From Methanobacteriaceae archaeon (GTDB lineage: Archaea; Methanobacteriota; Methanobacteria; Methanobacteriales; Methanobacteriaceae): DNA of 16,124 nt. Made by a program: the position numbers and the translations under genes. Below are positions 1,301-16,124 of the stretch, one piece after another; the stretch's first letter is position 1, and every line of letters starts with the position of its first letter. The stretch spans positions 1 through 16,124 of the forward strand of contig PWMT01000048.1 of NCBI GenBank assembly GCA_003558085.1, read 5' to 3'. Below the pieces are notes generated by a model. The model did not search any database, was not told where the DNA came from, and saw nothing but the letters and a program-made list of their open reading frames with translations.

Positions 1301-1310
1301 AGGTGATAAG

Positions 1311-2132
1311 ATGAATGAAAAAGTTAAGAATAATGCTAAAAACATTGTTCAATTAATGGAAGAAAATATGGTTCGAGAAAACAGGCAATTATTGTCTGCC
1401 TATATTGGCGGAACTGAATTATATGGTTTAAAAGATAATAATAAACCTATTATAAGAGGTATTTTTTTAGAGGATGCAGAAGAGATTCTTGCATTCCCTA
1501 ATAATTATTTTGCATCATCAATAGTACTAAAAGATGAGTTTACAGATATAAAGATATATGAAATGAGTACGGTAATGAAAAATATTATAAGAGGTAAGAT
1601 AGAGGGTTGGGAAGCCTTATATGCTAATCAATGTAAGGAAACTCATCTTTCCTTTAAATTACGTGAATTTGTATCAGATTTAAAACCAGACTTAGCTACA
1701 ATTGCGGGAACTGCAATTATGGATTCCTATACTATTTTAGAAAAAGATGTAGTTAAGACCCCAGTATTTTTTGATATGCTGAAGAATTTAATCATTGCTA
1801 TGCATTTCCTAAAAACCGGGTCCCTGGATTTGAGTTTAGCACATTATATTGAAGATTATAAGCTTTTAACTCTATGTGACTTTGATAAGCTATTAAATAA
1901 GATGGAAAGTAATGATAATATAATACCTTTTAAATATCATGAATTAATTGATGAAATTACAGGCGAAATCAAAAAAGATATGCAGGATTTAAAAATTTCA
2001 GAAGGGTTAAATAGTGGTATTACAGAGTTTGAATATTTAAAAATTAGGCAGTTTATTATTGAAACTAGAATAGATAAATTATTATCTGAAAATTTAATTT
2101 CTCAAAACCCAAAATTTGATGTGATAGAATGA
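1311..2132 (+). CDS. RlaP/YcgL-like (Pol beta superfamily) nucleotidyltransferase-fold protein, catalytic DxD apparently lost
   Basis: AYIGGTELYGL...IRGIF matches the GSxxYGLxxxxSDxDxRGvF pattern, and DIKIYEM...GWEALY matches the downstream D..yel.....E.L motif. The SDxD position reads NNKPI. RBS AGGTGA lies just upstream. Confidence 0.6.
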   Translation: MNEKVKNNAKNIVQLMEENMVRENRQLLSAYIGGTELYGLKDNNKPIIRGIFLEDAEEILAFPNNYFASSIVLKDEFTDIKIYEMSTVMKNIIRGKIEGWEALYANQCKETHLSFKLREFVSDLKPDLATIAGTAIMDSYTILEKDVVKTPVFFDMLKNLIIAMHFLKTGSLDLSLAHYIEDYKLLTLCDFDKLLNKMESNDNIIPFKYHELIDEITGEIKKDMQDLKISEGLNSGITEFEYLKIRQFIIETRIDKLLSENLISQNPKFDVIE

Positions 2133-2314
2133 AAGGTGTTAAAAGAAGTTTTTATCGAGAATTAGAGCAGAAAATAGATAATGCAAACTATGACGAGGCC
2201 GTAGCTCCTGAAAGATGCCCAAACTGTTTATCTTGTTCTTTGGAGTATAACCCCCCAATGAAATGTTGTAAAAAATGTGGTTGGACAAGATTTTTAGGAG
2301 TTGAGGAGGAATGA
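2129..2314 (+). CDS. Small zinc-ribbon protein
   Basis: 61 aa with CPNC...CKKCGW; ATGA overlap with the upstream gene. Confidence 0.7.
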   Translation: MKGVKRSFYRELEQKIDNANYDEAVAPERCPNCLSCSLEYNPPMKCCKKCGWTRFLGVEEE

Positions 2315-2421
2315 AATGTTTTAAATGTCAATATTTAGATTTGAAAGATAATAAATGTTGTTTGGTTGAAAAGAGGGAAATGTGCCCCTTACCTAATAAT
2401 TTTTTAGAGAATAAAAAATAG
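2311..2421 (+). CDS. 36-aa Cys-rich microprotein MKCFKCQYLDLKDNKCCLVEKREMCPLPNNFLENKK (not in ORF track)
   Basis: ATGA overlap with the upstream stop, GAGGAGG immediately upstream, CxxC...CC...C pattern; ends just before the next promoter. Confidence 0.6.
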   Translation: MKCFKCQYLDLKDNKCCLVEKREMCPLPNNFLENKK

Positions 2422-2471
2422 AAAAGTTTATATATGAGATTGAATATAAATATAATTGTAAGTTTGAGGTG
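2421..2471 (+). promoter_or_regulatory. Archaeal promoter (BRE GAAAAG + TATA TTTATATA at 2427-2434) and RBS GAGGTG (2466-2471) for the MoxR gene
   Basis: Purine-rich BRE directly before a consensus archaeal TATA box, about 45 nt upstream of ATG 2477. Confidence 0.65.
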
Positions 2472-2476
2472 TAAAA

Positions 2477-3259
2477 ATGAACATATATCCGGAAAAAACA
2501 GATTTAATAAAGCATATTGCGATAGATGAAAACATGCCGACTTTATTAGTTGGTGAAGCTGGTTTAGGTAAATCATACACTGCTGTATTAGCAGCTCAGA
2601 GTGCTGAAAGAGATTGTAGAACTGTTAATTTATCTAAGCAATCTGATTTAGTTGATTTATTAGGTCAGTTTATTTTAGAAAAAGATGGTGAAAATTCAGT
2701 ATTTAAATGGGTTGATGGTGTAATTACTCAAGCAGCCCAAGAAGGAAAAGTTCTGATTTTAGAAGAATTAACTATGGCTGATGGGACAATCCTGGCAGCT
2801 TTACATGGTTTATTCGAGAAAAAACCTAAATTATATACTACTAACGGTGATGTAAAAATCCACCCAGATTTCAGAGTTATAGGAACTTCTAATCCAAGCT
2901 GGACAAACTATAACGGAGTTTCTGAATTAAACTATGCATTTGAAGACCGTTTTGTCCACATTTTATTTGACTTCCCCCAAAGGCAAACTATTGAGAAGTT
3001 TTTAGAACCCTTTGAAAGGAATATAGAAAAAAGAGATATCGATATTGATGATATATATGATGTTGCTAAAAGATTATTCGAGTTATATCCGCGAAATGTT
3101 CCTAATTTCTTATCTCTTAGAGGGTTAGAATTTTTCAGTAAACTTCTAGGAACTTACAATGTTAAACAATCCTTCGAATTAGCAATTTTAAATAAAATGG
3201 AGAAAGAGGAGCGTAGTAAGGTAGTAGATATTATAGATAACTATATAGCTATCTACTAA
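2477..3259 (+). CDS. MoxR-family (CbbQ/NirQ/NorQ/CobS-like, AAA_5) ATPase
   Basis: Walker A GEAGLGKS, DLLGQF...FKWVDGVIT motif, Walker B LILEE, HPDFRVIGTSNP sensor 1, AFEDRF arginine finger. Confidence 0.9.
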   Translation: MNIYPEKTDLIKHIAIDENMPTLLVGEAGLGKSYTAVLAAQSAERDCRTVNLSKQSDLVDLLGQFILEKDGENSVFKWVDGVITQAAQEGKVLILEELTMADGTILAALHGLFEKKPKLYTTNGDVKIHPDFRVIGTSNPSWTNYNGVSELNYAFEDRFVHILFDFPQRQTIEKFLEPFERNIEKRDIDIDDIYDVAKRLFELYPRNVPNFLSLRGLEFFSKLLGTYNVKQSFELAILNKMEKEERSKVVDIIDNYIAIY

Positions 3260-3912
3260 TCCTTTTTATCTCCAGAAACCCACTTGTCATCTTCCTTTCT
3301 CTGTGAAGCCATCACAAGACCAGCAAAGCTGTCATCTATTCCATGAATCATCTTTTGACCATGCTCCATTTCTTCAAGCTTTGTTATCATTGTTGCTAAG
3401 TTTGCTATTGCTTCCTCTGTTGCTTTAGAGAGGCCAGCTACCGATGTTCTTTCGAATTTGCCCCCTCTACCAACTCTGGAAGTTTGTATACTTATTAGTT
3501 GTCTCATTAAATCAATAGCGTCAGGTCGTTCTTCATAGAAATTAATGAGTTCTCGACGCTCTGTTTCTGAAACAGAGTTTAAAAAATTTGCTAAGAGATG
3601 GCTTTTACTACCATTTTTAACAGCGTCAGGAGATGTTCCGGTTTTAATTTGTATTACAGATTTTTCAAATGCAGCGTCTTTATATAACTCGACTCCTTCA
3701 AGTTTTAAATCAGCTCGTAATTTAGCTAGACCTTTTTCATCAATTCCAAATTTTCTACATAACTCAGAGTTAGGAGTAAAAGGATATAATCTAATCAACA
3801 AACTTTTCTCCTTATCAGTCAACTCTTCTACCGTTCTTTCGGGTTCGTACGGGTCATCCTCTACCTTTAGAGGGAACCCCGATGGTTCTTCTAATTCTTT
3901 CATCTTCATCAC
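3256..3912 (-). CDS. Hypothetical protein with probable N-terminal HTH (exact start uncertain)
   Basis: 218-aa ORF. LTDKEKSLLIRLYPFTPNSELCRKFGI looks HTH-like and the C-terminus is helical. Convergent with MoxR with overlapping stops. Confidence 0.6.
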   Translation of the reverse strand: MMKMKELEEPSGFPLKVEDDPYEPERTVEELTDKEKSLLIRLYPFTPNSELCRKFGIDEKGLAKLRADLKLEGVELYKDAAFEKSVIQIKTGTSPDAVKNGSKSHLLANFLNSVSETERRELINFYEERPDAIDLMRQLISIQTSRVGRGGKFERTSVAGLSKATEEAIANLATMITKLEEMEHGQKMIHGIDDSFAGLVMASQRKEDDKWVSGDKKD

Positions 3913-4597: not shown

Positions 4598-5632
4598 ATG
4601 GGTTTTGAAAGAAAAAAAACCAGTGTAGAAGAATTAGAGAAAAAAGCAGAAAAATTAGCAGAAGAATATAAAGTAACAGATTTGGAAGACAAGATTGAGC
4701 GGTTTATAGACGAATATAAAACTATAAATCCTGAAGGCAGCGATGAGGATATCAGGGTTCGAGCATATAACAGATTTATTTTATCTATGAAAGGTAAAAA
4801 AGCTCGAAATCTACAAGATGTTAAGGCTGTATTATTCAGTAAACGACCGGCATATGATTTTGCTCAGAAGCCTAGACAGGACGCTCAAGATTACGTTGAA
4901 AAATATGGTAAAGAAAAAGCTATAGAGGATGGATATGTGAATCAAAAAGGTGATTTTTTATATACTACACCAAAATGGAAAAAAGGGAATGTTATTCCCG
5001 AGCACGAATATAGCAGTACAGCTTACGGTGTCTTTAAGTTAGAAAATGATGATGCACCGAAGTATGGAGAATTACACCTTTCAGGTTCACAGGCTATAGA
5101 TTTCCTTCCTTTATATGAAGAGGTGGAATTTGAAGGTAGAATTAACAAAAATAAAAGTACAGCGAAATTTTATGACATCTATTTATCTTCTGAAGTTCGC
5201 TCTAATGGTAAGAAAGTAGAGTTTTGGGATTTCTCAGAGATTCTTGATTCTGCTATACCTGAGAGATTTATCTCATCGTTTGATGATTTAGTAGTTTATT
5301 TAGACCAGGGGGTGAATGGTAAAGATAATTGGTGTTTAGTGCAATGCGAAATTATAGATATAGGTATGGTAGATAATACAGATGAAAGTAAAAATGTACC
5401 AGTGACACTGTCTGACCCAGAATCTATCACCTCAGATAGCTACACTTTCTGGGCTGAGCCAGAGTTAGCCAAAAGTATAAAGGGAGAATTATTCCCAGAT
5501 GCGATTGTAAGTCTTCGACCATACAAGAAAAAGGATGGTACGATTTCTGGACAGATTTGGAGCGTATTTGCGCCTGAATTAATGGAAGCAGAAGAGGCAG
5601 AAGATTTAGATGAATTAGAGGAGGCATGGTAA
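4598..5632 (+). CDS. Putative single-stranded DNA-binding protein (multi-OB-fold, acidic tail)
   Basis: 344 aa with beta-rich, aromatic-containing segments (EEVEFEGRI, WCLVQCEIIDI, YTFWA) and a very acidic C-terminal tail (EAEEAEDLDELEEAW). First gene of the replication operon, near a Sak4-like ATPase. The ORF is clear; the function is inferred. Confidence 0.45.
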   Translation: MGFERKKTSVEELEKKAEKLAEEYKVTDLEDKIERFIDEYKTINPEGSDEDIRVRAYNRFILSMKGKKARNLQDVKAVLFSKRPAYDFAQKPRQDAQDYVEKYGKEKAIEDGYVNQKGDFLYTTPKWKKGNVIPEHEYSSTAYGVFKLENDDAPKYGELHLSGSQAIDFLPLYEEVEFEGRINKNKSTAKFYDIYLSSEVRSNGKKVEFWDFSEILDSAIPERFISSFDDLVVYLDQGVNGKDNWCLVQCEIIDIGMVDNTDESKNVPVTLSDPESITSDSYTFWAEPELAKSIKGELFPDAIVSLRPYKKKDGTISGQIWSVFAPELMEAEEAEDLDELEEAW

Positions 5633-5635
5633 GGT

Positions 5636-5887
5636 ATGAAAATGAATATACCAAACGAAAATGAAGAGCAACAGGATGACATGAATGAAAATCCAATGGA
5701 TAGGTTGATAAGGTCTTTAATGTATGACTTAAGGTTATTAGAAGTTGATGCCAGTATGGTTCAGTCATTAGAGGCTAAAGTAGAAATTAAAAGACTGATT
5801 AAAGAAAAGCGCTACGAACTCCTAGGATTTATCGAGGCACTTAATAATCAAGCTAGAATGGAAGAGGAAAGGCAAAAACAGGTGTAA
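5636..5887 (+). CDS. Hypothetical small coiled-coil protein
   Basis: 83-aa charged helical ORF tightly packed between its neighbours. Confidence 0.65.
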   Translation: MKMNIPNENEEQQDDMNENPMDRLIRSLMYDLRLLEVDASMVQSLEAKVEIKRLIKEKRYELLGFIEALNNQARMEEERQKQV

Positions 5888-5891
5888 GAAG

Positions 5892-6767
5892 ATGTGGGGA
5901 GATGAAAAACAAGAAAAAACGAGAAAATCAAAAAAGAATTTTATCGAAACAAATCGACAAATGCTTTTTGAAAAACCTCTAACCCTTCCCGAAGAAGTGC
6001 CTAGCTGTGTCATGATTTATGGCAAGGACGGAACGGGTAAAACGGGGTTATCCCTCTCCGTTTTAACTGACAAGGATATAAAGAAAGGTCAGAAAATCGT
6101 TATTGTAGATTTAGATTCAGGAAATCTACCTTTACTATTGGAATATCACAAAGATAAAGTAAATAAACATATACTATATAGAGACCCAGTAGTATGGGAG
6201 ACAGATGACGATGGCATGCCTATAATAAATTATAAAGAAACTATAGGTCATATTAACTCTATAGCTATTGCTGCAAAGAACAGATGGAAAGAAAAAGGTG
6301 ATATAAAAGCAATAATCCTTGACGGAGGCAGTAAGCTTTTAAAGCAAGCAGAATATCAAATGAGGCTCGACCGATACATAGAACCCGCAGGAGAAGTTTC
6401 TTATCGCTTCTGGGCCGAAAGAAACAAAATGTTCCAAGAGACATTAGAATTATATAAAAATTTACCCTTTGACAAGTATTTTATAATGCACGAGGATTTC
6501 GTACCACACTTAACACCACCTAGTAAAGAGATGGCAGCAGTAAGGCAGTTTGCTAACCAAATGATGTATCAAAAAATCTATTGCGAGCGCATAGACAAAG
6601 CAGTAGCTGTAGAATTTGCCGCGACTATCGATAAATCCAAGTTTAGCATAGGTAAAGAAGGAAAACAAGAGGTTTTTGCCAGCGCCAATAAAAGCGACGA
6701 ATCATTTAAATGGGAACCTGAAAAGATTTTAAGGCACTTGAAACCTTCATACGCCGGAGATGATTAG
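5892..6767 (+). CDS. RecA-fold ATPase, AAA_24/Sak4-like (putative single-strand annealing protein)
   Basis: Walker A MIYGKDGTGKT, IVDLDSG strand, Walker B AIILDGG, and FIMHE strand typical of phage AAA_24/Sak4 proteins. Confidence 0.7.
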   Translation: MWGDEKQEKTRKSKKNFIETNRQMLFEKPLTLPEEVPSCVMIYGKDGTGKTGLSLSVLTDKDIKKGQKIVIVDLDSGNLPLLLEYHKDKVNKHILYRDPVVWETDDDGMPIINYKETIGHINSIAIAAKNRWKEKGDIKAIILDGGSKLLKQAEYQMRLDRYIEPAGEVSYRFWAERNKMFQETLELYKNLPFDKYFIMHEDFVPHLTPPSKEMAAVRQFANQMMYQKIYCERIDKAVAVEFAATIDKSKFSIGKEGKQEVFASANKSDESFKWEPEKILRHLKPSYAGDD

Positions 6768-7430
6768 TTGGCTACTTTTCTACAAGCAAATACAATATTG
6801 AATGCTTGGCATAAAGCAGTTAAAGAAGTCTACCTCAACGGTGCGACAATTATAGACGAAAATGACACAGAAACACGAGAAATTCTTGATTTAATCATTG
6901 AAATACGAAACCCTAATATCCAAATTGGAGAACATGAGTTTTGGAAAACCGATGCCATTGAGAGGTATTGCGAGCAATTACTCGACTCCTCGAAGGGCTC
7001 TTTTTCTTACACGTATGGTAATCGTTTACGTAGCCATTTTATCAGTAATCCATTACTCGACCCAAAAAAGATTGACCAGATTGAAAAAGTTATTAGAAGG
7101 TTGGAGAAAGGAAATAATACTCGTAAAGCTGTTGCTGTACTCTTCGATCCAACGGTCGACCACGATGCAGATGATATACCTTGTATTGACCTCATAGATT
7201 TCAAGATTCGAAATAAAAAGCTTTACCTTTCTGCATACTGGCGAAGCAACGATATTTATGGTGCTTATTATGCGAATGTCAAAGGTTTAAAGTATGTTGC
7301 TGATTTCGTAGCTGAAAAAACTAATTCAGAATTGAAACGCATCACTACGCATGGTGGGTCAGCCCATATCCTCAAGTACGATTTTGTAGCTGCTGAGGAG
7401 CTTGCGATGATGGATAAAATGAAAAAATAA
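6768..7430 (+). CDS. thyA: Thymidylate synthase, archaeal/methanogen ThyA type
   Basis: YTYGNRLR, NTRKA, catalytic IPC, WRSNDIYGAYYAN (Asn indicates dUMP specificity), SAHI; TTG start directly after the upstream stop. Confidence 0.9.
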   Translation: MATFLQANTILNAWHKAVKEVYLNGATIIDENDTETREILDLIIEIRNPNIQIGEHEFWKTDAIERYCEQLLDSSKGSFSYTYGNRLRSHFISNPLLDPKKIDQIEKVIRRLEKGNNTRKAVAVLFDPTVDHDADDIPCIDLIDFKIRNKKLYLSAYWRSNDIYGAYYANVKGLKYVADFVAEKTNSELKRITTHGGSAHILKYDFVAAEELAMMDKMKK

Positions 7431-7441
7431 GAGGTGATAAA

Positions 7442-7564
7442 ATGATAACTGGGATACCGGCATTAGAATTAATTAGAATAGGTTTCTTCCTTTCAATAGG
7501 TTTTTCACTAATCTGGATAATAGTGCTTATATTATCTGTTATTGGAAGAATTTTTTCTAAATAA
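7442..7564 (+). CDS. 40-aa single-pass membrane microprotein MITGIPALELIRIGFFLSIGFSLIWIIVLILSVIGRIFSK (not in ORF track)
   Basis: Strong RBS GAGGTGA at 7431-7437, a hydrophobic stretch of about 22 residues, and a T-tract after the stop. Confidence 0.7.
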   Translation: MITGIPALELIRIGFFLSIGFSLIWIIVLILSVIGRIFSK

Positions 7565-7571
7565 TTTTTTT
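7565..7571 (+). terminator. Possible archaeal oligo-T terminator
   Basis: T7 run directly after the stop of the last gene of the 4598-7564 cluster. Confidence 0.4.
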
Positions 7572-7572
7572 G

Positions 7573-7600
7573 ACCATTAATGGTAAAATATATATATTAG
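7573..7600 (+). promoter_or_regulatory. Promoter of the polymerase operon with a 12-bp palindrome ACCATTAATGGT abutting BRE/TATA
   Basis: Perfect palindrome at 7573-7584 followed by AAAATATATATATT; GAGGAG RBS before ATG 7635. Confidence 0.55.
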
Positions 7601-7634
7601 AAGAGATATAAATTATAGAACTCGAGGAGAAAAA

Positions 7635-9071
7635 ATGAGGGAAAGAAAAATATTTGAAGCCATAAAAAACTGCAAGAGCTGCGAATTACATAAAACAGCC
7701 AAAAACAAAGTCATCGGCCGGGGGAGTCTTTCCCCGGATGTCTTATTTGTTGGCGAAGCGCCTGGAGCAGAGGAAGACATACAGGGTAAACCATTTGCAG
7801 GACCGAGCGGAGAACTCCTAAACCACTGGATAAAAAAATTGAAGACTAAAAAAGTAGCAATAATAAATATAATAAAATGCCGCCCACCAAAAAACCGAAC
7901 CCCTACTAAGGAAGAGGTAGAAGAGTGTTCGAAATTTCTCGAAGCTCAAATAGAATTATTAGACCCTAAAATTATTGTCGCATTAGGTACTGTTGCAATG
8001 AAAGAATTATTAGGGTTTGACACAGGGATACTAAAAAAAAGTGGAAAAATAGAAACCAGTTACAAATATTTTAATAAACCAGTTTTTATAATGCCACACC
8101 CCGCTTACTTCTTACGCCAGGGCGGAAAAGGTTGGGAAGATGATATAAAAAGTTTAAAGGAAGAAATAAATAAAAAACATCACTTTCAACCTTTCGTACC
8201 ACTTCATGTACATTCTCATTTTTCAATAAAAGATGGGTCTAGTAAATGTTCCGAATTATTTAAAGAAGCAAAAAAACAAGGTTACACAGCTCTAGGCATC
8301 AGCGACCACGGCACAGTGGCTGGATGGGTGGATTTTGCTATGGCAGCAAAACAATATGAAATAAAACCGATATTTGGGATAGAATTTTATGTAGGTAACT
8401 CACATAAACCAAAAGATAAAAATAGAGAACATATATGTGCTTTCGCTAAAAACCAGAAAGGAATAGAAAATATTATAAAATTAGTAAATATTAGTAACGA
8501 TAACGAACATTTTTATTATAAACCAAGAATTTTTTTAGAGGATTTAATGCAATATAAAGAAGGGTTAGTTATAACATCAGCATGCGTATTAGGAGTTATT
8601 TCCCAAAAAATAATCGAAGGAGATTATCCAGAAGCAAAGAAAATAGCTGAAATGTTAAAAAAAGAATTTAAAAACGATTTTTATTTAGAATACCAAATTC
8701 ATAATTTCGATAAGCAGGAAAAAGTAAATTTAGCAATTAAATCTTTATCTGAAGAATTAAATATACCCACAATAGTAACCACCGATGTACACTACACGAA
8801 TAAAAGTTTTAAAGAATTACATAATAGTTTGAAAGCTATCGCATATCATAAGAAATATGGGGAAGCGAATTTTACAGGAGACTCCCATTGCATACTAAGT
8901 ATTAAAGAAATGGCTGAATATGCAGAAAACGTAGGTTTAAATTACCAAGAAGTAATGAAAGCAGCAAAAAATACACTAGAAATAGCAGAAAAATGTAATG
9001 GAAAATATGAATCATTTGGCTTAATTATTCCAAAATTTGATGCTACAAAATATTCACAACAAATAAAATGA
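7635..9071 (+). CDS. udg: Family-4 uracil-DNA glycosylase fused to the PHP domain of DNA polymerase III alpha (N-terminal part of split DnaE)
   Basis: UDG4 part: CKSCELH, GEAPG, KCRPPKNRTP...C, HPAY. PHP part: LHVHSHFSIKDG, ISDHG, IFGIEFY, FYYKPRI, TSAC, TTDVHY, ending at IPKF where the DnaE PHP domain ends. Confidence 0.92.
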   Translation: MRERKIFEAIKNCKSCELHKTAKNKVIGRGSLSPDVLFVGEAPGAEEDIQGKPFAGPSGELLNHWIKKLKTKKVAIINIIKCRPPKNRTPTKEEVEECSKFLEAQIELLDPKIIVALGTVAMKELLGFDTGILKKSGKIETSYKYFNKPVFIMPHPAYFLRQGGKGWEDDIKSLKEEINKKHHFQPFVPLHVHSHFSIKDGSSKCSELFKEAKKQGYTALGISDHGTVAGWVDFAMAAKQYEIKPIFGIEFYVGNSHKPKDKNREHICAFAKNQKGIENIIKLVNISNDNEHFYYKPRIFLEDLMQYKEGLVITSACVLGVISQKIIEGDYPEAKKIAEMLKKEFKNDFYLEYQIHNFDKQEKVNLAIKSLSEELNIPTIVTTDVHYTNKSFKELHNSLKAIAYHKKYGEANFTGDSHCILSIKEMAEYAENVGLNYQEVMKAAKNTLEIAEKCNGKYESFGLIIPKFDATKYSQQIK

Positions 9072-9082
9072 GGTAAAAAATA

Positions 9083-11536
9083 ATGGAAGATAATTACACA
9101 ATTATGGAAAAGCTTTGTCAAAAAGCCTTAAAAGAAAAGAAGCTCCATAAAAAACAAGATTACAAAGATAGACTGGAATATGAGCTTCAAATCATAAAAG
9201 ATAAAGACTTCGTTGATTATTTCTTTATCGTAAAAGATGTTGTAGATGCGGCAAGAGAGAAAGGGATTATGTTAGGACCGGGTCGAGGAAGCTCAGGAGG
9301 TTCTTTAATTGCATATTTGCTTGATATAACACAAATTGACCCTTTAAAGTTTGGTCTATACTTTGAAAGATTTATAAATCCTGCTAGACATGATAATCCT
9401 GATGCCGACCTAGATTTTCAATCAAGTAGACGAGATGAAATGTTTGAATATTTAGAGGAGAAATATGGCAAAGAGTGTGTAGCAAGAATACCAAGCATTG
9501 TTAAATTCAAACCTAAATCTGCATTGCGCGATTTAGCTAGAATAGAGGGTATACCTATTCAAGAAGTAAATCTTTTAACAAAAAATATTCCAGATAATCT
9601 TCCACTTGAACATGTGCTTAAATTAAAGGAAGCTTCAATATTTTTGAATAAGTATCCAAGAGTTGCAAAAATTCTTCCTCAACTTTTGGATAAAATTAGA
9701 CATACAGGGGTTCATGCTGCGGCATGTGTAATTACACCTATATCTGTGGACAATTTTTTCCCATTAGAAAAAAAAGGAAGATTTTTCTGTGCATCTTTTG
9801 ACAAAGACGCATTAGAAGATTTAGGTTTTTTAAAATTAGATTTACTATCTTTAAAAACTTTGGATGTAATAGATGAGGCAATAAAGAATATTAATAAAAA
9901 TGGATATAAGACCAAATTACCTTTAGAGCCTGATGACCCAGAAATTTATAATCATATTTTTATTCCAGCTTATACAAATGGTGTTTTTCAATTTGAAACA
10001 ACGAATTTAACCGATTATGCTAGAAAGGTTAAAATCGATAGTTTTAAATTATTAACTGATACGACTTCCATAGCTCGTCCTGGAACAGCAGCTAGTGGTG
10101 ATGCGGCTAAATATATTGATAGAAGGCACGGTAAAGAAAGTGTTCAATATATACATCCGTCTTTAGAGCCAATTCTGCATGATACATATGGAATTATTGT
10201 ATATCAAGAGCAAATCATGCGGATTGTTAATGAAGTAGGGGGTTTACCTTTAAGTGATGCGGAGATTATAAGAAAGTTAATTTCCAAATCAAAAGGAATA
10301 TCTGCTCTAGAAAATTACAGAAATAAATTTGTTGAGGGCGCCCAAAATAATGGGGTTTCTAAGGATTTGGCTAATAAGATTTGGGATTCTATAAAGGAGG
10401 CTGGTAATTATTCATTTAATTTGTCTCATGCTGTGGCTTATAGTCTAATAAGTTATTGGTGTGCTTGGTTAAAACGTTATTATCCTCGTGAGTTTTTAGC
10501 GGCTTTGATGAGGTTTGAGGAGGGTGGAATGTTTGCTGCGGCTACGGAAGAGTTGAAGTTAATGGGGTATAAAGTTTTAGACCCAGATGTTAATACTTCT
10601 GATAATCGTACAAGCATTAATGAATCTGGTGATGTGTTGATTGGTTTAGAGGACGTCGATCAGGTTGGCTCTGCGGCTGTAGAGGAGATTAAAAGGTTAA
10701 GGCCATTTAAAAGTTTCGATGATTTCTTGGATAGGGTAGAGGCTCGTAAAGTTAATAGTCGCTCCATAAAGCATTTAATATTTGCTGGAGCGTTTGAAGC
10801 TTTCGGAGAGAAGGAAAAGCTTTATTATAGAATAGCAACGGATGAAAAACCTCGTAAATGGACGGATAAGGAAGAGATTATGAAAAAATATGCTGTTATA
10901 AAAACTAGCCCTCGGCAGCCTATTATTAACTTCTTCGACCATACAGCCATCCAAGCAACCAAAAACAACGGCGGCCTGACGGACATTGGGGCGGTCGATT
11001 GGGAGTCTGCCTCGGAGGAAGTTTATATTAAAGGAATAATTACCGAAATCGACATCAAAATAGGATATGCAATAATGGATATAAACGATGGAACAGGCAC
11101 AGCAAATGTTTTAATACCTAAAGAAAGCTTAGACAAATACCGTGAAATATTCGAAGAAGGAACAGGAACACCAATACTAATAAAAGCCCACAAAAGAGCT
11201 GAAAATAGTAGATTCTACCTTGATATGTTAATCGACTTAAGAAACGAATTAGAATCTGATAGTAAAGAATATAGATATTTAACTGGCGAAACATATAAAT
11301 ATATAACAGAGCAGGGTAGAAGTGGCGAAGCATTAGTTGTATCCTCCTCATATTTCTTATCAAAACAAAACCAGAATAGAGGTACAAGATTAACATTAAT
11401 AAATCAAGATGGCATGTTTAATAGAATGTGTTTCGATTCTCTACAACAAGATATAGAGGCAGGAGATATCATCAAATTCCAAGAATCGGGCTACGAACAA
11501 GTTTTTATAAAATTCATAGATTTTATTTATTCATAA
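9083..11536 (+). CDS. dnaE: DNA polymerase III alpha (family C) catalytic core lacking PHP: palm, thumb, fingers, HhH, OB
   Basis: GPGRGSSGGSL, FERFINPAR, PDADLDF (catalytic Asp pair), HAAA, KLDLL (third Asp), GVFQFE, RPG, YQEQIM, YSFNLSHAVAYS, PDVNTS, OB fold VYIKGII...INDGTG; own RBS GAGGT at 9070-9074. Confidence 0.95.
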   Translation: MEDNYTIMEKLCQKALKEKKLHKKQDYKDRLEYELQIIKDKDFVDYFFIVKDVVDAAREKGIMLGPGRGSSGGSLIAYLLDITQIDPLKFGLYFERFINPARHDNPDADLDFQSSRRDEMFEYLEEKYGKECVARIPSIVKFKPKSALRDLARIEGIPIQEVNLLTKNIPDNLPLEHVLKLKEASIFLNKYPRVAKILPQLLDKIRHTGVHAAACVITPISVDNFFPLEKKGRFFCASFDKDALEDLGFLKLDLLSLKTLDVIDEAIKNINKNGYKTKLPLEPDDPEIYNHIFIPAYTNGVFQFETTNLTDYARKVKIDSFKLLTDTTSIARPGTAASGDAAKYIDRRHGKESVQYIHPSLEPILHDTYGIIVYQEQIMRIVNEVGGLPLSDAEIIRKLISKSKGISALENYRNKFVEGAQNNGVSKDLANKIWDSIKEAGNYSFNLSHAVAYSLISYWCAWLKRYYPREFLAALMRFEEGGMFAAATEELKLMGYKVLDPDVNTSDNRTSINESGDVLIGLEDVDQVGSAAVEEIKRLRPFKSFDDFLDRVEARKVNSRSIKHLIFAGAFEAFGEKEKLYYRIATDEKPRKWTDKEEIMKKYAVIKTSPRQPIINFFDHTAIQATKNNGGLTDIGAVDWESASEEVYIKGIITEIDIKIGYAIMDINDGTGTANVLIPKESLDKYREIFEEGTGTPILIKAHKRAENSRFYLDMLIDLRNELESDSKEYRYLTGETYKYITEQGRSGEALVVSSSYFLSKQNQNRGTRLTLINQDGMFNRMCFDSLQQDIEAGDIIKFQESGYEQVFIKFIDFIYS

Positions 11537-11547
11537 GGAGGGGAATA

Positions 11548-11805
11548 ATGCGAAAAAGGAGTAAAAAAGATGTAGTTAATAGTGTATATGCAATATTAAA
11601 GGAGGGTGAACCTCTCATGTCTCATCAACTAGTAAATAGGCTTTTGAATCGTGATTTAATAGGTTCACATATGGGCATGTCGAGTTCACGGTTAGCTAAA
11701 CTCATGAGTGCGGACGGAAGATTTGTAGAAGTTAGCCGAAGCGTAAAAGGTAAAATTATATGGGGAATTAAAGGAGTTGATTATGGTGAGACTATCGAAA
11801 AGTAA
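11548..11805 (+). CDS. Winged-helix (HARE-HTH-like) DNA-binding protein, 85 aa
   Basis: True start is likely ATG 11548 after AGGAGGGG, not 11428. VYAILKEGEPLMSHQLVNRL...RFVEV...IWGI is a wHTH pattern. Confidence 0.6.
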   Translation: MRKRSKKDVVNSVYAILKEGEPLMSHQLVNRLLNRDLIGSHMGMSSSRLAKLMSADGRFVEVSRSVKGKIIWGIKGVDYGETIEK

Positions 11806-12544
11806 AATTCTAACTTATCTAGATTGTCCTAGAAAATTTAAATATAGATATATTGATAAAACTAAAACATCTGAACCAGAAGAAGGTTCTCCTTTAAAAA
11901 TTGGAATAGATGTACATGAGTTATATGAATGGTACTATAAACACCCTGATGCTCCTCATATAGATTCTGAAGAGAGTATTAAGAGAATATTGGCAGAAAA
12001 CCCTTTATCTTCAAAATATCCTCTTTACGCAAAAAACTTTATAGAATTTAATATGGAACTTTTTAATGAATTAGGAGCTCCAGCATATCTTCCAGAAAAT
12101 GTAGAATTATATTTACATGACCCATATTTTGATATACATGGATATATTGATGCAGTTTTTGATAGTCCGGCTGGTAAGATTATTGTAGATTATAAAACCG
12201 GCAGAGAACACCCAATAGGAAAATACTCTCTTGAGCTTCTAATGTATAAAATTCTATATGAAAGAGTAGCCGGGGATAAGGTAGGTTATGTTGGCGCTTT
12301 TTTCCCTAAAGGGGGAAACAAGTGGAGAATGGCTAAAATAGTTCATGCAGGAGAAAACAACCCTAAAAAAGGAGCTTTTTTTACCATAGAAGATGAATTC
12401 ATTGTATTAGAAACAATCGACCAAGTAAGAGAAAGAATTAAAGATAACGAATTTGACCCGCCCGACGATATATATAAAAAGAAATTTATGTGTAATTACT
12501 GTGAATATAAAGACTTATGTAAAAAAGAAGGTGTGAATTTATGA
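11783..12544 (+). CDS. PD-(D/E)XK RecB/Cas4-like exonuclease with Fe-S cluster
   Basis: LSKSKILTYLDCPRKF, GIDVH, GYIDAV, IVDYKTG, C-terminal CNYCEYKDLC (four-Cys staple). AGGAG RBS favours ATG 11783. Confidence 0.88.
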   Translation: MVRLSKSKILTYLDCPRKFKYRYIDKTKTSEPEEGSPLKIGIDVHELYEWYYKHPDAPHIDSEESIKRILAENPLSSKYPLYAKNFIEFNMELFNELGAPAYLPENVELYLHDPYFDIHGYIDAVFDSPAGKIIVDYKTGREHPIGKYSLELLMYKILYERVAGDKVGYVGAFFPKGGNKWRMAKIVHAGENNPKKGAFFTIEDEFIVLETIDQVRERIKDNEFDPPDDIYKKKFMCNYCEYKDLCKKEGVNL

Positions 12545-12906
12545 AAGAGTATCAAAAAACTCTTGATGTTTTAGCCGAAGAGTTAAACCATAAATTCCCA
12601 AAATTAAAAAAAAGTGAAATACAATCAATAATATTTGAAAACATTATAGAGGATTTTACAATACCTACCGAATATATTTTAAACAATAGTTACTGCAATA
12701 ATTGTAAATTTTGTTGTGAGCATTGTCCAGACTTAACAGAGGATAATATATGCTCTAACATTTCCCCTCCAAAAGAGTGTAAATTCTTTCCATACTGGGA
12801 AAACGAACAAAATAGAGGTATTTTTTTGTTTCCAGAATGCGAGTCTGCTTATACAATAGTTTTTAAATATTTGTGTTTACAAATTCAAAAAAAAATGAGG
12901 TGTTAA
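12541..12906 (+). CDS. YkgJ-like CxxCxxCC cysteine-cluster (Zn/Fe-chelating) protein
   Basis: CNNCKFCC..CPDL....ICS.....PKECKFFPY pattern; ATGA overlap with the upstream gene. Confidence 0.7.
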   Translation: MKEYQKTLDVLAEELNHKFPKLKKSEIQSIIFENIIEDFTIPTEYILNNSYCNNCKFCCEHCPDLTEDNICSNISPPKECKFFPYWENEQNRGIFLFPECESAYTIVFKYLCLQIQKKMRC

Positions 12907-12907
12907 A

Positions 12908-13879
12908 ATGAAAAAGTTTTTCCAAATCTTTATAAAACCTAAATTTAGAAAAACATTTGATTTATCAAATAAAAAAAGTGCAATGAAATTAATAAACGAT
13001 AATAATGTACGAAAAGACCTTTATAGAACTATATATAACTATGAAGGCAATGTAGAAGGAAATCAGGCTATCATAGATAAAGTTTTTTTAGATTTCGACC
13101 CTGAAGAAAGCGAAGAAAAATTATTAGAAGATGTAAGAAAAGTATCAAATTTATTGAATAATAAAAATATTAAACATTCTCTTTTCTTTAGTGGCAGAGG
13201 TTTTCACATATTTGTATATACCAATATAATTAAAGCTAAAGATTTAATAAATCCTAGAACCGCTATTAGAAACTTTGTAAATGACATAATTGAAATAACA
13301 AAAGCATCTGTGGATTATCAGGTTGTAGGAGATTTAATGAGAGTAGCTAGAATACCTAATACTATGAATATGAAAACAAGACTTTATTGTATTCCTCTTG
13401 ACCAAAAAGAATTAGAATATTCCATTGAATATATTAAGGATTTAGCAACCTCACAAAGATTTTTTAAAAAAGATTCAGAGGGTAAACCTTTAGATTTAAA
13501 AGTATATGATACCGGAACTAAAACTCAATTATCTGATTTAGAGGTTACATTAGAAAGCGATGAGGATTTAGATATAGGCGAGTTAGGTAAACTTGATTTA
13601 CCATCATGTGTATTACACTCTTTAAAAAAAGGTAGACCTAATTTTCAAGAGCGCTTTATGATTATAACCTGTTTAAGAGATTTAGCTTTTTCAAAATCAG
13701 AAGTATCAAAAATATTAATGAAGTTTTTAACTGAAGACCGATACACTCATTGTATAGAGGAAGAAAGACAATTGGATTATTTATTTAATAGACAAGACCT
13801 ATTATTCCCTTCATGTAGTAGAATAAAGGAAATGGGGTTTCATGTAAAGGGTTGTACAGGAAATCAAATATATGAGTAG
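12908..13879 (+). CDS. priS: Archaeo-eukaryotic primase: PriS catalytic domain fused to a PriL C-terminal-like domain
   Basis: Motif I FLDFD, motif II FSGRGFH, motif III GDLMRVARIPNT. The C-terminal LPSCV...ERF...PSCSRIKEMGFHVKGC resembles the PriL Fe-S domain. Confidence 0.85.
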   Translation: MKKFFQIFIKPKFRKTFDLSNKKSAMKLINDNNVRKDLYRTIYNYEGNVEGNQAIIDKVFLDFDPEESEEKLLEDVRKVSNLLNNKNIKHSLFFSGRGFHIFVYTNIIKAKDLINPRTAIRNFVNDIIEITKASVDYQVVGDLMRVARIPNTMNMKTRLYCIPLDQKELEYSIEYIKDLATSQRFFKKDSEGKPLDLKVYDTGTKTQLSDLEVTLESDEDLDIGELGKLDLPSCVLHSLKKGRPNFQERFMIITCLRDLAFSKSEVSKILMKFLTEDRYTHCIEEERQLDYLFNRQDLLFPSCSRIKEMGFHVKGCTGNQIYE

Positions 13880-14543
13880 AGGTGTTATAATGGAAGTTTT
13901 TGTTGATACTAGAGAGCCATCAAGTATTGTTAAAAGTGGTAGAGTTCTTTATCCTCATTTAATCGAGAAGAAATTGGATTATGGTGATGTGATGTTTGTG
14001 AAGGATAAGAAATGTATTTGTATCGAGAGGAAGAAGCCGGCAGATTTTGCAAGCTCCTGTGTTAGTGGTAGAATGTATAATCAGGCTATTAATTTAAGAA
14101 ATGCTTGCACTCAGTCAGTTATTGTTATAACTGGTTCATATGACGATATTAAAAATAATAAATATATTAAAAATTTTTCTAAGAAAAAATGGAATTCTCA
14201 TATACTTTCACTAATATTGCGCTACGGTGTTCCTATTGTCTTTGCTGATAATGATAATAAATTTTGGGATAAGTGTGCCGAAATTGAACGTATAGGATAT
14301 AAAGAGACACCATTGGCTCGTAGAGAAGTTAAAAAATCAAGTGATAATGTATATGTTGATATGTTATGTGCAATACCTTCTATTGGTGAAAAAAGAGCTA
14401 TATCACTTTTGAATGCTTTTGATTTTACTGATATTTTCTTTTTAGATGTAAAGGATTTAATGAAAATTCAGGGGATAGGTAAAAAAAGAGCTAAAGAAAT
14501 TAAGCGATGGATGAAAATGAATGGGAGGCTGTGCGATTGCTAG
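13872..14543 (+). CDS. ERCC4/XPF (Hef-like nuclease module) structure-specific endonuclease with tandem HhH
   Basis: VDTRE, GDV, IERKK..DF nuclease motifs; IPSIGEKRA and IQGIGKKRA HhH repeats. Start may be the second Met (13889-13892 region). Confidence 0.9.
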   Translation: MSRGVIMEVFVDTREPSSIVKSGRVLYPHLIEKKLDYGDVMFVKDKKCICIERKKPADFASSCVSGRMYNQAINLRNACTQSVIVITGSYDDIKNNKYIKNFSKKKWNSHILSLILRYGVPIVFADNDNKFWDKCAEIERIGYKETPLARREVKKSSDNVYVDMLCAIPSIGEKRAISLLNAFDFTDIFFLDVKDLMKIQGIGKKRAKEIKRWMKMNGRLCDC

Positions 14544-14755
14544 CAATAAAAAAAGAAGAATTAAAACGTAGAGTTGAGGATGGAGATTCATTAAAAGAAA
14601 TAGCTCATGACATAGGTGTTTCTATAGGTTATTTAAGTCGTCTCTGTAATAAATATAAAATTAAAGCTCCAAAACCTGGTAGAAAAAAGGGTGTCGCCTT
14701 ACCTGAGGAGCATAAACAAAAGATTGGCGAGAGTATAAGAAATAGGGGGCATTAA
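14507..14755 (+). CDS. Small HTH protein with C-terminal NUMOD3-like motif (start possibly GTG 14531 or TTG 14537)
   Basis: SLKEIAHDIGVSIGYLSRLCNKYKI HTH; GVALPEEHKQKIGES NUMOD3-like; GGAGG at 14524-14528. Confidence 0.7.
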   Translation: MDENEWEAVRLLAIKKEELKRRVEDGDSLKEIAHDIGVSIGYLSRLCNKYKIKAPKPGRKKGVALPEEHKQKIGESIRNRGH

Positions 14756-15490
14756 ATGGATCAATTACTAAAGAAAGGTGCTGTTTTGATCGAAACATAT
14801 AAAAGAGTAAGGAAAGAACAAGATAGTTCACTTTCAAGACTTAGAAGCGCTAGAAGAGGTTTACCCATCAATGTTATTCGAGACTTGGAAGATTTAATAT
14901 ATTTTCCTTTCGATAAAATTATTAATAATTTAGAAGATGAAATTGCTAATACAATGCAATTAATTCCTGTATATAATAGTTTTTTATATAAAATTAAGGG
15001 GCTCAATATATATGATGCATTAGAAATTTTAGTCTTAATTCGCGATGTTAAACGATTTAAGAATATTAGTAAATTATGGGCATATGCTGGACTTGCACCT
15101 ATTGAATACTGTAAGGTTTGTGGCAAGAGAATGAAAGCAAAAGTGAATTATTGTAAATGTGTTTCACCTGAAATTGTTATGATGACTGAGAGAAAACGCA
15201 ATGGAGGGCAGGTTTCTTATAATGAGAGGCTTAAAAAGAAATTAAATCAAGTCTTTAATATTGTAATAGATACTGATGAGTATTATAAAGATAAATATTC
15301 AGAGTATAAAATTCATGAATTTGCAAAGGAAGATAGAATTACTGCATTACACGCAAAAAACAGAGCAAAAAGAAAAGTAATAAAACTCTTTTTAAATCAT
15401 TTATTTATTGAATGGGCAAAGTGTGATGACATTAAGAAACCCCGACCATATCAACCGTTATCGGATTTTAAGGAGGCTGAAGATGAGTAA
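14756..15490 (+). CDS. IS110 Transposase_20 / Nop-domain-like protein lacking the RuvC (DEDD) domain, with Zn-ribbon insertion (TasA-like candidate)
   Basis: IKGLNIYDALEILVLIRDVKRFKNISKLWAYAGLAP matches the IS110 C-terminal domain, followed by CKVC...CKC, YNERLK and HAKNRAKRKVIKLFL. The N-terminus is only a short coiled coil. Confidence 0.75.
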   Translation: MDQLLKKGAVLIETYKRVRKEQDSSLSRLRSARRGLPINVIRDLEDLIYFPFDKIINNLEDEIANTMQLIPVYNSFLYKIKGLNIYDALEILVLIRDVKRFKNISKLWAYAGLAPIEYCKVCGKRMKAKVNYCKCVSPEIVMMTERKRNGGQVSYNERLKKKLNQVFNIVIDTDEYYKDKYSEYKIHEFAKEDRITALHAKNRAKRKVIKLFLNHLFIEWAKCDDIKKPRPYQPLSDFKEAEDE

Positions 15491-16124
15491 TATTTTAGTT
15501 GTAAAAAGTAATGGTGAATGTGAAACATTCAAACCAAGGAAGATTGTTGAAAAATTAATTAATGAAGCAGATGTAGAGCCAGATTTGGCTAAAAACATTG
15601 CTAGACGTGTTTCTCGAAAGATTAGTGATTTAGATATTGACGAAATTGATAGTATTAAAATTAGAAATATTGTTAACAACCATCTAATCAAAGAAGGTGA
15701 ATTTGATAGAGAAACTCAGCATGAACGTCTGGGCGTTAGTGTGGCTGACATTAAGGACCAAATAGAGAATGGGAGTCGGGACAACGCAAATATGTCTCAT
15801 AATCCAGAAACAATTCATAAAATGGTAGCAGATATGGCGCTTAAACAGTTCGCTTTAATCGACTTACCCTCTGATATTGTCCGTTCTCATGTTACGGGTG
15901 ATTTTCACTGTCTTGCTCCAGAAATGTTAATTGTATATAAAATTAAAGAAGAAATTTATTTATCTACAATTAAGGATTTTGTAGAAGATTATTTTAATAT
16001 AGAAGAGGATATTTTTGTCCCTAGCTTCAATGTAGAGAATAAGGAGGTTGAATGGAAAAAAGTAGTTAATGTAATGAAAAATGACCCATCACAGTTATAT
16101 AAAATTACTTTTACAAGAGGAAGA
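15483..16124 (+). CDS. nrdD: Anaerobic (class III) ribonucleotide reductase with ATP cone, intein-containing; 3' truncated (not in ORF track)
   Basis: MSNILVVKSNGECETFKPRKI ATP cone; RLGVSV...ENGSRDNANMSHNPETIHKMVADMALKQFAL...SHVTGDFH resembles methanogen NrdD; AGGAGG RBS; frame open to the window end. Confidence 0.88.
   Translation, partial: MSNILVVKSNGECETFKPRKIVEKLINEADVEPDLAKNIARRVSRKISDLDIDEIDSIKIRNIVNNHLIKEGEFDRETQHERLGVSVADIKDQIENGSRDNANMSHNPETIHKMVADMALKQFALIDLPSDIVRSHVTGDFHCLAPEMLIVYKIKEEIYLSTIKDFVEDYFNIEEDIFVPSFNVENKEVEWKKVVNVMKNDPSQLYKITFTRGR
15909..16124 (+). mobile_element. Intein N-terminal splicing region within nrdD (continues beyond window)
   Basis: NrdD similarity stops after GDFH. 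The sequence continues CLAPEMLIVYK (block A, Cys1), TIKDFVE, VPSFN...VEWKKV, LYKITFTRGR, typical of a Hint-domain N-terminus up to just before block B. Confidence 0.85.

Follow-up and report, generated by a model that had tools for sequence, protein, structure and literature searches.

A two-gene DnaE polymerase in a probable PhiF1-like virus replication module from a Methanobacteriaceae genome

Introduction

Few features divide bacteria (family C) from archaea and eukaryotes (families B and D) as sharply as their replicative DNA polymerases. Here we ask what a family C polymerase is doing, and in whose genome, on contig PWMT01000048.1 of a Methanobacteriaceae archaeon draft genome (hereafter the host bin). 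The contig was analysed in full (16,124 bases, 32.4% G+C; hereafter the window). The polymerase is encoded by two neighbouring genes in a block that runs from position 4598 to the contig end, in which every long open reading frame (ORF) is on the + strand and neighbours overlap or are separated by short gaps. An initial annotation had described a family C polymerase co-oriented and tightly packed with an archaeo-eukaryotic primase (AEP), an XPF/ERCC4 nuclease, ThyA and NrdD, and all of these are indeed present on the + strand.

Our reading is that the window very probably holds the module by which a tailed virus or provirus, distantly related to Methanobacterium virus PhiF1, replicates and recombines its DNA and supplies nucleotides in a Methanobacteriales methanogen, and we extend this grading to the mechanism that is proposed below. 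A lineage of methanogen viruses would then keep a family C enzyme beside archaeal-type primase, single-stranded DNA (ssDNA)-binding and nuclease genes, which means that the divide can be crossed. The module lends itself to the question of what partners a replicase cannot do without, and a cultured pair of PhiF1 and Methanothermobacter is at hand.

The family C replication layout is not new in kind, since it is already annotated in the GenBank record of PhiF1. New are a diverged member (about 50% identity or less to anything found), fold-level names for two PhiF1 genes recorded as 'hypothetical' and the loss of a clamp-binding stretch; the gain is incremental. No paper on DnaE in archaeal viruses was found by a literature search that did not include the 2023 compendium of methanogen viruses. 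The partial text of PMC9796341 lists PhiF1 solely as an unclassified virus, and DnaE is unmentioned in PMC13465236.

Results and discussion

A gene block in common with PhiF1

The polymerase core was matched by 1402 phage records, only three of which covered at least 80% of the query. The best was PhiF1 (MK994522), a cultured virus of Methanothermobacter thermautotrophicus, with 38% identity over 89% of the core (ORF57). When all window proteins were compared (n = 20), 11 had collinear counterparts in PhiF1 (ORF62 to ORF51; 27-51% identity). In order, these are a gene of unassigned function, a multi-OB-fold protein (ORF61), an ATPase (ORF60), a methanogen-type thymidylate synthase ThyA, a fusion of uracil-DNA glycosylase (UDG) with the DnaE PHP domain, the DnaE core, a PD-(D/E)XK nuclease, a primase (ORF55), an ERCC4 nuclease, a Transposase_20-like protein and NrdD. 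The best conserved is the ATPase of 291 aa, 51% identical to ORF60.

The PhiF1 polymerase is split between PHP and core at the same place, also in different frames, and GenBank names both ORF57 and ORF58 'putative DNA polymerase III DnaE superfamily protein'; ORF58 carries the N-terminal family-4 UDG. ORF55 and ORF61 are 'hypothetical' in GenBank, and their readings as primase and multi-OB protein come from the present analysis. The two elements also differ. The PhiF1 core has 1176 aa versus 817 aa in the window, owing to an insertion of about 340 residues that the window lacks; the window has an intein in NrdD, whereas PhiF1 has the large insertion in its DnaE core instead; and the left part of the window, with its nucleotidyltransferase and AAA_5 ATPase, has no PhiF1 counterpart. 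The G+C content of the window is 32%. PhiF1 itself is tailed, and its genome includes genes for sheath, tape measure and baseplate.

Metagenome contigs were scanned with the primase alignment; 80 loci were kept and the 54 of at least 6 kb were examined. Primase and DnaE core occur together at 21 of the 54, and at 15 of these 21 between 6 and 11 window proteins were matched in order. For several of the module loci the contig measures 85-152 kb and has 28-32% G+C. Since the gene order is kept in PhiF1 as well as in metagenome contigs, a chimeric contig, which the initial annotation had named as an outcome that would overturn it, is excluded. IMG/VR loci have at most three window proteins in common, and a scan of genome contigs for closer relatives gave bacterial DnaEs only, of 32-39% identity, among the 80 loci that were kept. 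A DnaE match was found in 8 of 327 other Methanobacteriales genomes, of which two, G222 and G221, fall in the clade of the window DnaE (see below); G222 is a 99% complete Methanobacteriales genome in 10 contigs. At metagenome locus L214, on a contig of 45,790 bases, the DnaE row is identical to that of PhiF1 in the tree columns and the identities to window proteins are close to those of PhiF1, from which PhiF1 or a near-identical virus appears to be present in that metagenome.

Host assignment

The host bin (1.86 Mb in 175 contigs; 95.9% complete, 0.73% contamination) encodes mcrA, the methyl-coenzyme M reductase alpha gene. Family searches also found PCNA, MCM and a PolB in two pieces, a set that fits a Methanobacteriales methanogen. 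An archaeal host is well supported, because the contig was binned with a methanogen, PhiF1 is the best match with 11 of 20 proteins in order, ThyA is of the methanogen type and DnaEs of the same clade occur in G222 and G221. ThyA (6768-7430) scores 198 bits against TIGR03283 thy_syn_methano, above the curated cut-off of 174.55, and matches PF00303 at 1.7e-14. Hence both the archaeal ThyA and the archaeal virus of the initial annotation are upheld, the latter by the bin, the kinship with PhiF1 and the type of ThyA.

On other contigs the bin has its own ThyA (contig C142), NrdD (contig C20) and XPF, with 37%, 42% and 26% identity to the window proteins, respectively. As the host thus has its own copies, those of the virus are diverged paralogues. 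Window DNA compared with 314 genomes of the family gave short or low-identity matches only, the best of 72-79% over at most 122 bases and mostly in conserved parts of nrdD and thyA. No overlap was found between the window ends and the ends of other bin contigs.

An alternative is that the contig is a bacteriophage fragment, misbinned into a methanogen genome, whose archaeal look stems from phage genes that resemble archaeal ones. DnaE, UDG and PD-(D/E)XK nucleases are common in phages, as the many phage records that match the core illustrate; some of the small contigs in the bin, with 47-65% G+C, seem to be foreign; no spacer ties the contig to a host; and bacterial contamination probably accounts for some DnaE matches in other Methanobacteriales bins, as appears to be the case for G185, whose DnaE falls among Bacillota in the tree. 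Nevertheless we hold a misbinned phage to be extremely improbable, since the closest cultured relative infects Methanothermobacter and has 11 genes in common order, ThyA exceeds a methanogen-type cut-off, primase and nuclease resemble PriS/PriL and Hef/XPF, respectively, the G+C content of the window fits that of the large contigs in the bin (32-35%), and the same DnaE clade is found in the nearly complete G222.

The polymerase gene pair

The first polymerase gene (7635-9071, + strand, 478 aa) encodes a family-4 UDG (PF03167, 3.6e-34, residues 28-165) followed by the DnaE PHP domain (PF02811, 5.1e-42, residues 190-355). Its UDG domain scores 156.3 bits against TIGR00758 UDG_fam4, above the cut-off of 125.3. 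The second (9083-11536, + strand, 817 aa) encodes the DnaE core with palm/thumb (DNA_pol3_alpha PF07733, 1.2e-73), fingers (PF17657, 9.9e-42), helix-hairpin-helix (HhH; HHH_6 PF14579, 1.5e-19), a weak OB fold (PF01336, 5.4e-4, below its own cut-off) and a C-terminal domain. The DnaE domain order of PHP, palm/thumb, finger and HhH is therefore complete across the two genes, and model NF004226 is covered by them in turn, positions 1-290 by gene 1 and 300-890 by gene 2 (591 bits on the core).

The two genes are 11 bases apart and each has a ribosome-binding site (RBS). The TGA stop of the UDG-PHP gene overlaps a GAGGT site that lies 8 bases before the ATG of the core gene, which is in another frame. 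The separate frames together with the arrangement of GAGGT and ATG indicate a coupled gene pair and not a frameshift error. Database relatives with UDG, PHP and core fused into one protein have 1271 aa and 1298 aa.

The initial annotation had spoken of both DnaE and PolC, and the latter does not hold. PolC models score at most 61 bits on the core (NF001688 61 bits, TIGR01405 55 bits, over about 60 residues) versus 591 bits for the DnaE-type model, and the Pfam scan found no exonuclease domain of the PolC-type insertion in the polymerase genes. The enzyme is, moreover, made by two genes with a UDG fusion. By its profile matches it is a DnaE-type enzyme.

In the core, D107, D109 and D111 (PDxDxDF) as well as D240/D253 are invariant in 10-11 relatives; by analogy with E. 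coli DnaE, the catalytic palm aspartates are presumably among these acidic residues. The translated UDG domain shows GEAPG, CxxC and two more Cys, and the translated PHP domain a His/Asp/Glu/Cys pattern.

Bacterial DnaE and the DnaE-like proteins of phages (Streptomyces phages, PHROG 405) have the same usual domain order of PHP, palm/thumb, fingers and HhH, and cellular DnaEs show 33-41% identity to the window core over about 70% of its length. Unlike bacterial DnaE, that of the window consists of two polypeptides and is fused to UDG. It is accompanied by neither a beta clamp nor tau/clamp loader, DnaB or DnaG, and the host cell uses PCNA as its clamp.

Further splitting was seen in relatives of low G+C content on contigs of about 145 kb, where the core itself is encoded in two parts (about 590 aa and 247 aa), giving a three-gene DnaE (L223, 4649-8855; L235, 6214-8771). 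The two core parts of L223 are separated by the gene for a C5 cytosine methylase.

Origin of the polymerase

The database proteins closest to the window DnaE (P0002-P0005, including the fused forms) have 47-48% identity, and after about ten such proteins the matches are ordinary bacterial DnaEs. In a FastTree phylogeny of 100 rows, 19 of the 23 rows from module loci form one clade with eight close proteins and one further protein (Shimodaira-Hasegawa (SH)-like support 96-98). This clade lies inside a mostly viral clade (SH-like 99), apart from a clade of Bacillota and other cellular DnaEs. The other four module rows (L244, L254, L277 and L280) form a second branch of the same viral clade. The likeliest origin suggested by the tree is that the window polymerase was acquired from a pool of viral DnaEs and not recently from a bacterial chromosome. 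As regards the horizontal acquisition that had been proposed, the tree places the enzyme with viral DnaEs and not in a lineage of bacterial chromosomes.

Primase and ssDNA-binding protein

The 323-aa protein encoded at 12908-13879 (+ strand) is a predicted AEP primase, with evidence from motifs, profile and fold. In an alignment of 26 relatives D62 and D64 (DxD), S95, G96, G98 and H100 (SGxGxH) and D136, the third acidic residue, are invariant. The protein weakly matches PriS model NF001641 at 2.7e-7 as well as other 'primase' entries, and its profile matches PriS of Sulfolobus solfataricus in the PDB (3.3e-4, residues 71-159). An AlphaFold2 model with a predicted local distance difference test (pLDDT) of 88 gave 26 Foldseek matches at E ≤1e-3; the probability was 1.0 to CAPP Prim-Pol (2e-5), PriS of S. 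solfataricus and Pyrococcus (PriS 3.4e-5) and LigD-Pol. Among the relatives, PF04104, the Pfam family of PriL, was detected on two of 27 and DnaB_C on one, a protein of 565 aa. A protein identical to the window primase is recorded on a contig of 22,248 bases.

The C-terminal region (query residues 223-315) matches residues 209-296 of S. solfataricus PriL (E 2.3e-4). In the same 26 relatives C234, C303 and C316 are kept in at least 90%, and H281 of an HC pair at 281-282 is invariant, which suggests a domain similar to the C-terminal domain (CTD) of PriL with a putative Fe-S cluster. Ubiquitin entries that ranked higher in the PDB profile search are spurious and had no passing stretch. In comparison with archaeal PriS/PriL and the compact AEPs of mobile elements, the window primase has the AEP motifs and fold and, by its profile match, probably the helical, Cys-rich end in common; it is unlike PriS/PriL in being a single chain of 323 aa that misses most of PriL and has no fused helicase.

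The 344-aa protein at 4598-5632 (+ strand), homologue of PhiF1 ORF61, has 75 relatives at E ≤1e-3 in the representative library, and a Pfam scan of 60 aligned members gave four weak matches only, each in a single member. Its AlphaFold2 model is confident (pLDDT 93, predicted template modelling score 0.86). The top Foldseek matches were Pyrococcus abyssi RPA (E 8.4e-7), CST, Teb1, RPA70 and the two-OB SSB of Taq/Deinococcus, with probability about 1 and template modelling (TM) scores of only 0.18-0.34. VIA structure comparison gave OB folds of the MCM N-terminal domain (Z about 10 over about 100 residues) and Oxytricha TEBP-alpha (Z 9.5 over 182 residues). From the model, the protein is most likely a tandem-OB, RPA-like ssDNA-binding protein of unassigned sub-family. 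A sliding clamp, considered because the length is near that of DnaN, was ruled out since the fold is tandem OB.

Clamp, helicase and processivity

A six-frame search with the beta-clamp N-domain, which matched ten bacterial genomes as control, gave no match in the host bin, the complete PhiF1 genome, G222, G221 or G038. The complete PhiF1 genome (74 kb) likewise gave no match to PCNA, MCM, DnaB_C, PolB or PolA. As neither PolB nor PolA is matched there, DnaE is the sole recognisable replicative polymerase of PhiF1. No helicase or clamp was found among 20 unmatched ORFs next to the module at L232, L218, L223 and L235; these gave NrdD, a radical-SAM activase, Mom, TnpB, two C5 methylases, a GIY-YIG endonuclease, an MjaI-like enzyme and DUF7788/DUF2828.

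In aligned sequences the clade of the window DnaE is also without the internal beta-clamp-binding stretch of cellular DnaE. Between the anchors AGAFD and HP, from the end of HhH to the start of OB, there are 42 residues in the window, 40-53 in 21 clade members and 56-81 in 33 cellular DnaEs. A regular expression for Qxx[LMIF][FLWY] matched this stretch in 21 of the 33 cellular DnaEs. The part that bears the motif is missing in the clade, where three rows that match the expression have the motif elsewhere, in a helix before the HP anchor. Many viral DnaEs of IMG/VR are also without the internal motif.

Other candidates were rejected. QPIINFF (core residues 612-618; PLIDFY-like across the clade) is not a clamp motif or PCNA-interacting protein (PIP) motif, because it aligns with HPLxxY of bacterial enzymes at the start of OB and not with QxxLF. 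Profile comparison of the 273-aa and 218-aa proteins with host PCNA gave a probability below 1%. A complex prediction of host PCNA with core residues 575-655 scored 0.00 and is taken as evidence for neither side.

A PIP-like tail is absent from the PHP subunit of the window. At L232 the PHP subunit (5227-6165) ends in QKKLSDF, which is PIP-box-like, and those of L220, L223, L225, L226, L229, L231, L235, L237, L165 and L215 have [HY]xx[LF]xx[IL]F near the end.

The pair might instead be an enzyme of repair, gap filling or translesion synthesis tied to uracil removal, the genome being copied by the PolB/PolD of the host with PCNA and MCM. The UDG fusion and the neighbouring nucleases would suit such a role, as would a polymerase that comes without clamp, clamp-binding stretch or helicase in a host that supplies PCNA, MCM and a two-piece PolB. 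Still, replicative alpha models outscore the error-prone DnaE2 model on the core (591 versus 372 bits), the DnaE genes adjoin genes for primase, ssDNA binding and supply of deoxynucleoside triphosphates (dNTPs) in every relative among the metagenome loci, PhiF1 has no match to another polymerase, and the module is kept across deep divergence (27-51% identity). On balance a repair role is unlikely, and we favour the reading of DnaE as the replicase of the virus.

Points against a viral replication module

Several observations weigh against the view that the window is the replication module of a methanogen virus. Capsid, terminase, tail and lysis genes are absent from the window, so that kinship with PhiF1 alone leads us to speak of a virus rather than of a plasmid or other element. 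In the rest of the bin the structural ORFs of PhiF1 gave just two short, weak matches to tail genes (contigs C120 and C128), its ORFs otherwise matching host paralogues only, and a search of the bin for Peptidase_C71 gave a match below cut-off only. The replisome as described is incomplete, since, as the initial annotation had stated, neither a clamp nor a helicase gene is present among the window ORFs examined; nor was a further polymerase found in the window.

Binning is the sole direct link to the host. As to the spacer matching that the initial annotation had put forward as a check, a simple repeat finder saw no array of clustered regularly interspaced short palindromic repeats (CRISPR) in the bin, and the 10 short stretches of high DNA identity that were inspected in related genomes all lie outside repeat arrays. 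A five-copy direct repeat on bin contig C118 (47040-47290, spacing of about 57 bases) is a tandem repeat with alternating, repeated 'spacers' and not a CRISPR.

As for the polymerase, the tree was built with FastTree only, is unrooted and carries warnings on composition and long branches. The best NCBIfam score of 591 bits compares with a full-length cut-off of 1002, which neither DnaE gene reaches; scores below the cut-off are expected of halves. Exonuclease activity of PHP and glycosylase activity of UDG are predictions from motifs in the translation: the PHP pattern would correspond to the ligands of exonuclease-active PHP domains, and the roles of the UDG residues are putative.

With no virion gene in the window, the element could also be a plasmid or an integrated, non-viral mobile element with a replication module like that of PhiF1-type viruses. 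Such an element would fit with the near absence of matches to PhiF1 structural ORFs elsewhere in the bin, and in G222 and G221, which have a DnaE from this clade, no other module gene was found at the thresholds used. On the other hand, relatives of the module lie on contigs of 85-152 kb, PhiF1 is a tailed virus, and little can be read from the lack of virion genes in a draft of 175 contigs. To a non-viral element we therefore assign only a small chance, and the module of a tailed virus or provirus remains our reading.

Proposed mechanism

The mechanism that we propose starts from gene identities, conservation and order, which were observed, and each functional step is inferred from these. The primase, with its fused PriS-like and PriL-CTD-like parts, would lay primers on ssDNA coated by the viral multi-OB protein. 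The two-subunit DnaE would extend them, with palm, fingers and HhH supplied by the core, while the UDG-PHP subunit would most likely provide 3'-5' proofreading and uracil removal. That DnaE acts as a replicase primed by the AEP is our inference from the gene content. The Sak4-like ATPase, the PD-(D/E)XK nuclease and the XPF/Hef nuclease may start recombination-dependent replication and resolve its intermediates, and ThyA and NrdD would supply dNTPs. Host MCM and PCNA may be recruited through contacts that are not yet visible, or synthesis may be independent of a clamp.

A more specific proposal is that a bacterial-type DnaE lost its beta-clamp stretch and was fitted into an archaeal setting. 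PriS/PriL-type primers on DNA coated by an RPA-like protein would be taken up by the two subunits, and processivity would come from contacts with host PCNA and MCM or be clamp-free, driven by recombination or strand displacement. This we regard as doubtful. If true, the module would be a natural hybrid replisome that spans the bacterial/archaeal divide.

The module resembles phage modules for recombination-dependent replication in having a Sak4-like ATPase by an ssDNA-binding protein and a PD-(D/E)XK nuclease. It differs in that the candidate ssDNA-binding protein has RPA/TEBP-like tandem OB folds versus a bacterial SSB in phage modules, and in that an XPF/Hef nuclease stands in place of the RuvC or endonuclease VII-type resolvases usual in phages.

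Other genes of the window

The 291-aa P-loop ATPase at 5892-6767 is AAA_24/Sak4-like, thus RecA-like (PF13479, 3.7e-6; phrog_124, Sak4-like ssDNA annealing protein, 6.8e-6). The PD-(D/E)XK nuclease at 11783-12544 is Cas4/RecB-like (PF12705, 4.6e-24; TIGR00372 cas4, 1.1e-8, below cut-off) and 44% identical to PhiF1 ORF56. At 13872-14543 lies the XPF/Hef-type ERCC4 nuclease with tandem HhH (PF02732, 9.9e-16; PF14520, 4.9e-10), which scores 87.9 bits against Hef nuclease NF010337 over the C-terminal 206 positions of the model, its nuclease end. These three genes are on the + strand, as are all those from ThyA to the contig end.

The NrdD that the initial annotation had listed is there in part. 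The frame from 15483 to 16124, which runs off the contig end, encodes the ATP-cone (PF03477, 1.1e-8) and the first 45 or so residues of the NrdD domain (PF13597, positions 1-45 only); the remainder is cut by an intein and the contig end. In translation, the NrdD match ends at residue 167 (GDFH), a Cys comes next and the intein runs from base 15909 to the contig end. The intein_Nterm match covers residues 168-239 with 22.9 bits (cut-off 24.5).

The Transposase_20-like protein of 244 aa at 14756-15490 (PF02371, 8.6e-6; phrog_4285, 2.1e-14; PhiF1 ORF53) is kept within the module in PhiF1 and most metagenome relatives, and its closest Atlas clusters are viral. It scores 80.7 bits (cut-off 100) over model positions 45-214 of 215 of NF052498, the TIGR-Tas RNA-guided endonuclease. 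A tandem-repeat scan near this Tas-like gene gave short AT-rich repeats only and no TIGR repeat array.

Four small proteins on the + strand complete the block. The 83-aa protein at 5636-5887 has no family match and a GAGG/GGAG site upstream. The small basic protein of 85 aa at 11548-11805, whose start was revised to the ATG after the AGGAGGGG site, has no NCBIfam family. The 121-aa protein at 12541-12906, again without family match, has an AGGTG site upstream and one weak relative, of 26% identity, at metagenome locus L215. A helix-turn-helix protein of 82 aa at 14507-14755 gave weak matches to HTH_58 and HTH_3 (1e-3) and has relatives at loci L212 and L218.

The left part of the window (2-3259) begins with a 5'-open protein of 432 aa with weak CobT/peptidase PHROG matches. 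An RlaP-like nucleotidyltransferase of 273 aa (1311-2132; Atlas score 0.96, structure TM 0.70-0.75) and an AAA_5 ATPase that is GvpN/CobS/MoxR-like (2477-3259) follow. Between this part and the block, in divergent orientation (- strand), the gene at 3256-3912 encodes a protein of 218 aa and unassigned function, a homologue of PhiF1 ORF62 (tblastn, 34% over 190 aa) for which no Pfam or PHROG family was found.

Expression signals bear out the initial annotation only in part. It had given all module genes archaeal TATA boxes and GAGGTGA RBSs. Shine-Dalgarno (SD)-like tetramers (GGTG, GAGG, AGGT or GGAG) do lie within 25 bases upstream of 12 of 20 candidate starts; exact GAGGTGA, however, occurs just twice on the + strand, and TATA-like TTTA[AT]ATA is found on both strands, 11 times on the + and 9 times on the - strand. 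TATA-like strings are expected in DNA of 32% G+C, and neither kind of signal separates archaea from bacteria.

Genes that may belong to other elements were noted in related genomes and in the bin. Three related methanogen genomes have a second, diverged PCNA-like gene with 28-35% identity to host PCNA (G167 contig C3, 24813-25538; G133 contig C1, 66763-67476; G010 contig C1, 564771-565487), which may be part of mobile elements. On host-bin contig C16 a frame of 569 aa has a DnaB_C match (1375-1896, 34.5 bits) and could be the primase-helicase of another element in the same genome. In the window itself, the gap between ThyA and UDG-PHP contains an ORF of 40 codons (7442-7564), too short for the ORF list, with a perfect GAGGTGA 5 bases upstream, whose very hydrophobic product is possibly a small membrane protein.

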